Positions 39,001-42,000 of a DNA stretch of 43,830 bases are shown one piece after another (position 1 is the first letter of the stretch; each line of letters starts with the position of its first letter). A program made the position numbers. The DNA is from a virus (lineage: Duplodnaviria > Heunggongvirae > Uroviricota > Caudoviricetes), in IMG/VR virus record IMGVR_UViG_2839610755_000005; one strand, given 5' to 3'.

Positions 39001-42000
39001 ACAAAAAATGCAGCGTATGGCGTTGAGATAGAAAGTCTGGTGCTGGAGATAAATGCACCGGCAGCATAATAAAAAAAGAGCCAGCGACTGACCTGAAAAA
39101 GAAGACGCTGGCTAAAAGGCCTTATATGTTTGTAGATACTTATTTTTCACAGACAGCAATGATGCCTGTCAATATATTATCAATATGCGGATTGTTTCAG
39201 TTACAGATGCTTTATTAAGGAAAAAAACAGCCAGCACTGACTTTCGGTGGGGAGGTGCTGGCTCAAAAGGATAGTTGGATTTCACATGATACTTATGCCT
39301 GGCGGTATATTTTCTGACAGACAGTGACGGATGTTGTCAAGATATTGTGTCATTTATAACCTGAACCAGGGGGGCCGGAATGTTATCTGGCATTTTTAGC
39401 AGAGCCTGAATGCCATAATCACGGCTCCCGGAGTTGGCCGTCAGTGGGTGACACTGGCGGCTTTTTGTTTTCCTTTACTTTCATTTTCTGTCGGCGGTGA
39501 CGGAGACATACATCAGATGGAAAAAATCACAACAGGTGTGTCATACACCACGTCAGCGGTAGGGACGGGATACTGGTTACTGCAACTGCTGGACAAAGTC
39601 TCTCCGTCCCAGTGGGTGGCAATAGGTGTACTGGGGAGTCTGCTGTTTGGCCTGCTGACGTATCTGACAAATCTTTATTTCAAGATTAAAGAAGATAAGC
39701 GTAAGGCTGCGAGAGGTGAATAATGTCGCCGTCATTACGCAAGGCTGTTGCAGCTGCTATTGGTGGTGGGGCTGTTGCCATAGCGTCTGTGCTCATCACT
39801 GGTCCAGGTGGTAACGATGGTCTGGAAGGTGTCAGCCACATACCATACAAAGATATCGTTGGCGTATGGACTGTATGTCACGGACACACCGGAAAAGACA
39901 TCATGCCCGGTAAAACGTATACCGAAGCAGAATGCAAAGCCCTCCTGAATAAAGACCTTGCCACGGTCGCCAGACAAATAAACCCGTACATCAACGTCGA
40001 TATACCGGAAACAACGCGCGGCGCTCTTTACTCGTTCGTTTACAACGTGGGCGCTGGCAATTTCAGAACATCGACGCTTCTTCGCAAAATAAACCAGGGC
40101 GATATCAAAGGCGCATGTGATCAGCTACGGCGCTGGACATACGCTGGCGGTAAGCAATGGAAAGGGCTGATGACTCGCCGCGAGATTGAGCGTGAAGTCT
40201 GTTTGTGGGGGCAACAATGAGCAGGGTAACCGTTATTATCTCCGCTCTGGTTATCTGCATTATCGCCTGCCTGTCATGGGCTGTTAATCATTACCGCGAT
40301 AACGCCATTACCTACAAAGCGCAACGCGATAAAAAAGCCAGTGAGCTGAAGCTGGCGAACGTGACAATTACTGATATGCAGGTACGCCAGCGTGATGTCG
40401 CTGCACTTGATGCCAGATACTCGAGGGAATTAGCCGATGCGAGAGCTGAAAATGAAACTCTGCGTGCTGATGTTGCCGCTGGTCGTAAGCGCCTGCGCAT
40501 CAACGCCAACTGTCCAGGCTCCTTGCGTAAAGCCCCCATCACCTCCGGCGTGGATAATGCAACCGGTCCCCGACTGGCAGAAGCCGCTGAACGGGATTAT
40601 TTCATCCTCAGAGAACGGCTGATGGCAATGCAGAAGCAACTGGAAGGAGCACAGGAATATATCCGTACCCAGTGTATACCGTGATGTTTTGTTATGAAGG
40701 TGTTACTGGTAACGTTAAGGTAATTTAACAAAGAGTCAGTTCCGGACTTTATAGTGTGCTCAGTTCATGGACAAAAACGATTTCTGTGATAAATATTTTG
40801 AATATTATTTACAGGTAAATGGAGTGGGGCGCATGGATAGAAATATTACAATAGAGTATGAAGTATATGCCCGTATTGTATGGGCAGAGAAGGCAAAAAC
40901 ACGGTAATTCCGTGTGTTGCCATGATACCTGATTGGCAGAATAGTTGTTTGGTTTTGAGTATATAGTCAGCGTTTTTTGTTCAGTAATTGCCCCCTCAAA
41001 AAATAATAAAATAAGGTGATTATTTTTGTTTATTATTTAGTTTTTTTTGTGTGTTATTTTATTGTTTTTGCGTGGTTTGTTTTTTATTGTTATTTCATTA
41101 AGGGAAGGTAAATTCAGGATGGCAGTCTGTAGATAATCGGAGGTCACTTATGCTACATGATCACGTGGCAGAATGTCTGGAGAAAAAAGGACTGTACCGG
41201 AGAGCAGCTGAACGATGGGCAAAAGTGATGGTACAGCTAAGTGATGACCAGAAAAGAAAAGTGGCGGCACAGAAACGAGCAGAGTGTTTGCGTAAGGCGC
41301 GCCGGACTCCGGTTTCACCGGTGAACCTGACCGAAATAAAACAAGCGGTCAACAGACTACATTCTGAGTTGGGAATGGGATTTGAAGAGCGGCGGGTATT
41401 CCGACGATATAAAGGGACAGGAGAACAGAATACGTCCGGAAACGCGCGGTCAAAAAAATGCTAAAAAATATCTGAGAGAGTTATTGCCTGTTACCATAAG
41501 AAAAAGCGACTTTAGTGGTCGCTTTTTGTGTCATATATAAGTCGTTTAAGTAAACCTGTCTGAACAGGTGCTCTGGTCGTGTTTGTCTTTGTTGGGTACA
41601 AATTGAGAATATTTTTCATTAATTAATCTTCTTCTGCAGGCTTCAATAACCCACGCTGAAAAATTACCTGAACCTTTCTGGTCAAGAGCGATGTTAATTT
41701 GTTCAATCATCTGGTTTGGAAATCGGATGTTGCGGGTTGTTGTTCTGCGGGTCCGGTTTTTCGGTGACATTTTCTTTCCTCTGGTGACAAGCTATATGGC
41801 GAGGATTTTACATGGCCGTGCTTCGTACGTTACCGGGCAGAATCAAAACTCTGAATACCCGGCGGGTGAATGTCCTGAAGGGGGAACAGCGTCGGGTCAG
41901 TGGCAGTGCCCGGGTTTCCCTCAAGCGTCGTATCTGGCTGAGGGATGCCGGACAGTGCTGTCTCTGTGGGCGTGTGGTTGACCTTTGTGACAGTGAACTC

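Follow-up and report, generated by a model that had tools for sequence, protein, structure and literature searches.

Pch regulators are prophage-encoded master switches that couple phage content to expression of the LEE (locus of enterocyte effacement) type III secretion system in enterohaemorrhagic Escherichia coli, and the pch gene has been characterised since 2004. Here, we describe the pch gene at positions 41150–41464 (+ strand) of the Caudoviricetes record IMGVR_UViG_2839610755_000005, a stretch of 43,830 nucleotides referred to below as the window. The locus is, with a probability of about 95%, a group-1 pch gene with the pchA allele and the pchA type of leader, carried as a stand-alone moron of an O157:H7 lambdoid prophage.

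The closest described systems, used here as the reference, are found in E. coli O157:H7 Sakai, whose three annotated group-1 pch loci lie in prophages Sp4 (pchA), Sp11 (pchB), and Sp14 (pchC). PchA, PchB, and PchC all activate ler (PMC5931665). Pch reduces H-NS binding and thereby activates LEE1 (PMC4764244); plasmid-expressed PchA raises ler::lacZ activity from 1,577 to 9,087 Miller units (PMC5931665); and full LEE expression requires pchABC (PMC4456613). As to the genes themselves, pchA and pchB are direct targets of LrhA, and pchA mediates the action of Lrp/butyrate (PMC4456613); late after SOS induction, the levels of group-1 pch transcripts increase (PMC5931665, PMC6265319); and, according to two reports that cite Melson & Kendall 2019, an anti-Shine–Dalgarno segment within the coding sequence blocks translation of pchA, a block that the small RNA (sRNA) DicF opens under low oxygen (PMC7769764, PMC7873438). 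Among other family members, PerC of enteropathogenic E. coli (EPEC) activates LEE1/ler as Pch does, EPEC LEE expression being less dependent on PerC (PMC4764244); PchD, PchE, and K-12 YfdN (groups 2 and 3) have little or no effect on ler, and PchE represses curli and flagella (PMC6265319, PMC7369912, PMC5931665).

The coding sequence (CDS) in the window starts with ATG, preceded at a distance of 6 nt by the Shine–Dalgarno sequence GGAGG (41139–41143, + strand), and encodes a 104-aa PerC-family transcriptional activator, assigned by its Pfam match, its identity to the Sakai protein, and its RefSeq and UniRef names. The protein matches the Pfam PerC profile PF06069 with E=3.8e-44 and 149.3 bits (curated cut-off, 22.6 bits), residues 1–89 falling on profile positions 1–89 of 90, that is, over the full length of the profile. 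The corresponding database names are “PerC family transcriptional regulator” in RefSeq (WP_001303878.1) and “PchABC family transcriptional regulator” in UniRef. The initial annotation of the window, made from the sequence alone, had proposed a PerC-family regulator of 104 residues with the motif KGLYRRAAERW, taken as the PerC/Pch signature, and had named a protein similarity search as the check. Sequence comparison bears this proposal out: the open reading frame (ORF) is found at 41150–41464 on the + strand with the motif at residues 13–23; besides the PF06069 match, the protein shows 100% identity to Sakai PchA and 47% to PerC; and, since PerC of plasmid pMAR7 carries KGFYRRAADRWA at the equivalent position, the motif is a true family signature. 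Of 5426 complete E. coli genomes, 673 (~12%) contain the pch CDS, at a median copy number of three.

Assignment to an allele rests on the comparison with Sakai. The window protein is identical to PchA (ECs_1091) at 104 of 104 residues, differs from PchB by one residue (V6L), and from PchC by two (V6L and V58M). At the nucleotide level, the coding sequences differ at CDS positions 16, 172, and 183 (window positions 41165, 41321, and 41332), reported to be the sole differences among pchA, pchB, and pchC (PMC5931665). The window CDS has the pchA state at all three; pchB differs from it at position 16, and pchC at all three positions. Together, the near-identical 104-aa protein, the allele positions, and the site between the lysis and packaging genes place the gene in group 1. 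Nothing contradicts its identification as pchA-type; it is a textbook pchA-type LEE activator in the usual prophage position, already known and already annotated.

The similarity to pchA of Sakai Sp4 extends beyond the protein and the three diagnostic CDS positions to the leader and to the presence of Rz upstream. Over its 465 nt, the leader shows 98.7% identity, with 6 differences, at 40698, 40771, 40831, 40857, 40992, and 41056. The surroundings are different: the lysis–pchA segment of Sp4 is inverted and flanked by IS629, and similarity to the Sp4 locus stops at window position 41627, where the Sakai IS629 starts. Unlike Sp4, the pch prophage of the window has an RrrD-type lysozyme and HNH/HK97-type packaging genes, and stands in tandem after an Sp9-like prophage at ompW. 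PchB (ECs_2182, Sp11) and PchC (ECs_2737, Sp14) share with the window gene the family, the protein length, the gene position, and the cassette at 40278–41770 (95–97% identity), and differ from it in the V6L and V6L + V58M substitutions, respectively, and in the leaders (49 and 25 differences), where the divergence is found in the AT-rich core. This divergence of the pchB and pchC leaders from that of the window agrees with the report that LrhA regulates pchA and pchB differentially (PMC4456613).

The PerC ORF of pMAR7, the EPEC adherence factor plasmid, is a more distant relative (tblastn against plasmids: 47% identity over 87 aa, E=1e-27). It shares the Pfam family and the motif KG[LF]YRRAA[ED]RWA with the window protein, while differing from it in length (89 aa, without the 15-aa C-terminal tail), in being plasmid-borne, and in its genetic setting. 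It is located after perA and perB as the third gene of the PerA-driven perABC operon, whereas the window pch is a stand-alone prophage moron.

Attribution of LEE1/ler activation to the window protein is supported by the literature on the identical protein (PMC5931665, PMC4764244). By analogy, the 104-aa product would bind the LEE1 (ler) promoter region and relieve silencing by H-NS, StpA, and Hha; relieved LEE1 would switch on Ler, which in turn would switch on the LEE type III secretion system and non-LEE effectors. The same literature agrees with the earlier proposal that the gene is prophage cargo regulating the chromosomal LEE (PMC4764244, PMC5931665, PMC4456613). The presence of pch confirms an attaching-and-effacing pathogen as the source of the window.

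The intergenic leader, or regulatory region, of pch occupies 465 bp (40685–41149, + strand), is AT-rich, and is of the pchA type by composition and by comparison of leaders. The initial annotation had described it as an extremely AT-rich leader of about 460 bp with T-tracts, located downstream of the lysis genes; its size and location agree with our measurement, its start having been set at 40690, 5 nt inside the region. The description of its composition is borne out: the leader has a GC content of 33.3%, compared with 48.9% for the window, is among the lowest 2% of 465-bp windows, and contains in its core five T-runs of 5–8 bases (at 40973, 41023, 41041, 41065, and 41080), but it is not the extreme, as a region near 9700, upstream of nleA, is more AT-rich still. 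No segment varies more among the pchA, pchB, and pchC leaders than the core itself (40960–41119, + strand; 25% GC, 50% T), where most of the divergence of the window leader from them (6 differences from pchA, 49 from pchB, 25 from pchC) is concentrated. Such AT-richness suggests that the leader may be an H-NS-silenced promoter. In the literature searched we found no paper that shows H-NS at the leader of pch, and the supplementary data of PMC4764244 contain no per-gene H-NS table covering pch. As the leader is nearly identical to that of Sakai pchA, control of the pchA type is inferred for the window copy, which would have a promoter of its own and respond to LrhA and Lrp/butyrate as pchA does; read-through from the phage late operon after SOS induction may contribute. 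Downstream, between the convergent pch and ynfO genes, lies a predicted intrinsic terminator, AAAAAGCGAC-TTTAGTG-GTCGCTTTTT (41501–41527, both strands), a strong hairpin bordered by an A-run and a T-run. Since an 11-bp hairpin is predicted on either strand, this element can, as modelled, terminate transcription from either direction. The moron is self-contained, with its own AT-rich regulatory region, Shine–Dalgarno sequence, and intrinsic terminator.

At the level of translation, the sequence is consistent with the published DicF step. In the minimum free energy (MFE) fold of 41110–41200, positions 41137–41144, including the Shine–Dalgarno sequence, are paired with 41173–41180 (+ strand), a predicted anti-Shine–Dalgarno segment AUGUCUGG inside pch codons 8–11, identified from this fold and from the DicF duplex scan. 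In the free mRNA, the pairing probability of the Shine–Dalgarno sequence is 0.83–0.97 for 41138–41141 and 0.90 for 41143, G41142 being unpaired (0.08). Pairing of DicF with the mRNA was scored by 20-nt windows, as full-length RNAduplex gave meaningless whole-molecule duplexes. Over all pairs of 20-nt windows, the strongest DicF:pch mRNA duplex (-23.6 kcal/mol) is formed at 41164–41183 and covers the anti-Shine–Dalgarno. The segment involved is identical in Sakai pchA. Thus both features of a DicF-activated pchA mRNA, a Shine–Dalgarno sequence sequestered by an anti-Shine–Dalgarno in the CDS and complementarity to DicF, are found in silico. Translation of the window pch would be held down by the intramolecular hairpin, which prophage-encoded DicF would open under low oxygen. 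The DicF gene (25224–25275, - strand; Rfam RF00039, 76.7 bits at a gathering score of 48) lies in the early region of the pch prophage, upstream of dicB. Hence, DicF, the published activator of pchA translation, and its target are linked on one prophage.

Several results limit parts of this picture. For the protein, a single-sequence AlphaFold2 model shows four helices and a disordered tail at low confidence (predicted local distance difference test, 51; predicted template modelling score, 0.33); it was too weak for a fold search and gives no information on the mode of DNA binding, and a sequence search of the PDB returned no solved relative at E<=1. For the leader, the H-NS high-affinity motif TCGATAAATT, allowing at most two mismatches, has 43 matches in the whole window at 44.6 expected, with one two-mismatch match in the leader, and so speaks neither for nor against silencing; a sigma-70 promoter and terminator consensus scan of 40500–41850 yields three weak promoter-like sites, where 2.7 are expected by chance. 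The same scan missed the obvious terminator at 41501–41527; given this and the chance-level matches, it cannot locate the pch promoter. For translation, the Shine–Dalgarno sequence pairs in the ensemble about equally with an upstream partner (41120–41129) and with the anti-Shine–Dalgarno in the CDS, and the z-score of the hairpin is only -1.5. Finally, in RNA-seq of strain PA20, resolved by single-nucleotide polymorphisms, pchC is SOS-induced and pchA is not (PMC5931665).

The absence of H-NS motif enrichment and of promoter matches above chance in the leader region would also be expected if the leader were not an H-NS-silenced promoter at all, and this copy were expressed mainly or only as the tail of a Q-antiterminated late transcript on prophage induction, the AT-rich stretch being a spacer or a recombination scar of moron acquisition. 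The gene order fits this explanation, as pch lies directly downstream of the lysis genes in the same orientation, and the consensus scan (which missed the terminator at 41501–41527) finds no + strand terminator between Rz and pch. The late rise of group-1 pch mRNA after SOS induction (PMC5931665) also fits, although pchA itself did not respond in PA20. However, direct, differential control of pchA and pchB by LrhA and control of pchA by Lrp/butyrate, as reported in reviews, imply dedicated promoters (PMC4456613); LEE expression in uninduced cultures depends on pchABC (PMC4764244); and the window leader agrees with its Sakai pchA counterpart at 98.7% of positions. We thus consider mainly or purely late expression improbable, and favour pchA-type control of this copy.

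Less probable still, and in our view very unlikely, is that the leader holds an additional gene, either a small ORF or a minus-strand small RNA. The ORF list does contain a 46-aa ORF at 40767–40907, with a 24-aa internal version that starts at 40833 and has GGAG upstream. However, the 46-aa product has no Pfam or NCBIfam match, no gene is annotated in the leader in any RefSeq genome inspected, and the GGAG region of the internal version has five substitutions in the pchC leader, so both versions were rejected. On the minus strand, the consensus scan found a terminator-like hairpin with a U-run (UUUUU) at 40915–40899 and a weak promoter-like site at 41032–41003, about 90 nt upstream of it, and the minus-strand fold of 40880–41000 has z=-2.3; the pair is formally compatible with a short antisense RNA. 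Both matches are at chance frequency, though, and in the leaders of pchB and pchC the stem loses its 40902:40912 pair without compensation, which makes the hairpin an unlikely antisense-RNA terminator. An Rfam search at E<=5 over 40400–41900 gave two chance-level matches (SAM-II, E=1.8; sR32, E=1.2), neither of them in the leader.

That the window gene is instead a PerC-family paralogue without LEE activation, acting on targets such as curli or flagella in the manner of the likewise prophage-encoded PerC-family members PchD, PchE, and YfdN, would be a natural concern, as such members exist (PMC6265319, PMC5931665, PMC7369912) and a Pfam match alone cannot separate them from LEE activators, but has next to no probability here, because the protein equals PchA over 104 of 104 residues and so is not of the group 2/3 type, the gene has the pchA alleles at all three diagnostic nucleotides, and PchA experimentally activates ler (PMC5931665, PMC4764244).

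For the pchA-type gene so identified, the order of neighbouring genes is holin–lysozyme–Rz/Rz1–pch–ynfO–HNH–terminase, the same as in Sakai Sp11 and Sp14. On the lysis side are a class II holin (39517–39723; Pfam, E=3e-32), the lysozyme RrrD (39723–40220; Pfam, E=8e-46), and the spanin gene Rz (40217–40684, + strand; Pfam Phage_lysis, E=2.1e-46; “lysis protein” in RefSeq), the last lysis gene, which abuts the leader and has the Rz1 lipoprotein ORF (40437–40622, from the ORF list) embedded in it. Convergent with pch is the YlcI/YnfO-family gene ynfO (41546–41770, - strand; Pfam DUF3950, E=9.7e-20, and RefSeq), and the packaging side begins with an HNH endonuclease (41812–42177) and the small terminase (42466–43029). 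Comparison by blastn of 36000–43830 with the three Sakai loci delimits a cassette at 40278–41770 that includes most of Rz, runs on through the leader, pch, and the terminator to ynfO, and is common to the pchA, pchB, and pchC loci at 95–98% identity. Its borders are abrupt, on the left inside Rz (40278) and on the right at the ynfO start codon (41770, the right edge of the cassette), and the flanks differ from Sakai: the RrrD lysozyme lies to the left, and the HNH endonuclease and HK97-like terminase lie to the right. Abrupt borders and different flanking modules point to modular exchange of the Rz–pch–ynfO cassette among lambdoid prophages; judged by its sequence, the anatomy of the cassette is that of a moron moving between lambdoid backbones.

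The window spans two tandem prophages at ompW. Positions 1–20.7 kb are the right end of an Sp9-like prophage with the tail genes J and lom and tail fibre genes, ending at a C-terminal fragment of ompW (20547–20672). Directly after this fragment comes the integrase (20718–21848, - strand) of the second lambdoid prophage (20718–43830), which carries pch; the Sakai chromosome resumes at this point with yciE. The effector genes seen in the window, namely nleA (8210–9535, - strand), espO (ORF 14851–15186, identified via the Sakai annotation), nleG (15840–16487, - strand), espM1 (16671–17261, + strand), and a DUF1076/NleG-type gene (18768–19418), all belong to the Sp9-like prophage. The initial annotation had placed pch in one genome block with LEE-dependent effectors; within the window these effectors are on the neighbouring prophage, beyond the ompW fragment and the integrase; matching complete genomes show nleG-type genes of the pch prophage itself, outside the window. 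In one genome with a nearly base-perfect match to the window, these are a DUF1076 gene and nleG7, located at the far end of the pch prophage.

Of 5426 complete E. coli genomes, only 31 carry at least 80% of the second prophage arm. The ten best-matching records listed come mostly from cattle, beef, or meat and belong either to O157:H7 or to unserotyped E. coli, and the matching strains inspected have four group-1 pch copies, compared with the usual three. The phage collection holds two unannotated fragments of the pch locus only. While the window pch adds no new biology, its point of use is that the pch copy number varies (four versus three), which may be relevant when virulence-gene expression is compared across strains. 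If the fourth copy is indeed expressed, it could raise the Pch dosage measurably and shift the LEE induction threshold in the sublineage. It is doubtful, though conceivable, that the window copy, as a fourth, pchA-type pch with its own DicF gene on a rare tandem prophage at ompW, constitutes a strain-level regulatory variant; even so, it would not represent a novel type of system.

The pch prophage is probably defective, as suggested by its DUF968 gene (32840–33889), an annotated pseudogene in which an internal stop separates two ORFs (32840–33346 and 33362–33889), and by a frameshifted portal gene, a further sign of decay, just past the window in the matching genomes. The Sp9-like prophage is also altered. 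Relative to Sakai Sp9, a 1,674-bp deletion at 11121/11122 removes nleH1-2 and most of nleF, leaving a 111-nt annotated effector fragment, and an IS3-family (IS629-like) element at 1344–2653, with an ALIL frameshift pseudoknot at 2202–2318, splits the host-specificity gene J into two pseudogene pieces. Several other RNA genes are found on the pch prophage: a hok/sok type I toxin–antitoxin locus (31706–32030), with sok RNA at 31706–31880 (112 bits) beside the annotated hokD; and, upstream of a SASA-family esterase gene, two sRNA genes back to back, STnc100 (36807–37007, + strand; 150 bits) and the anti-GcvB sponge AgvB (37010–37071, - strand; 96.5 bits).

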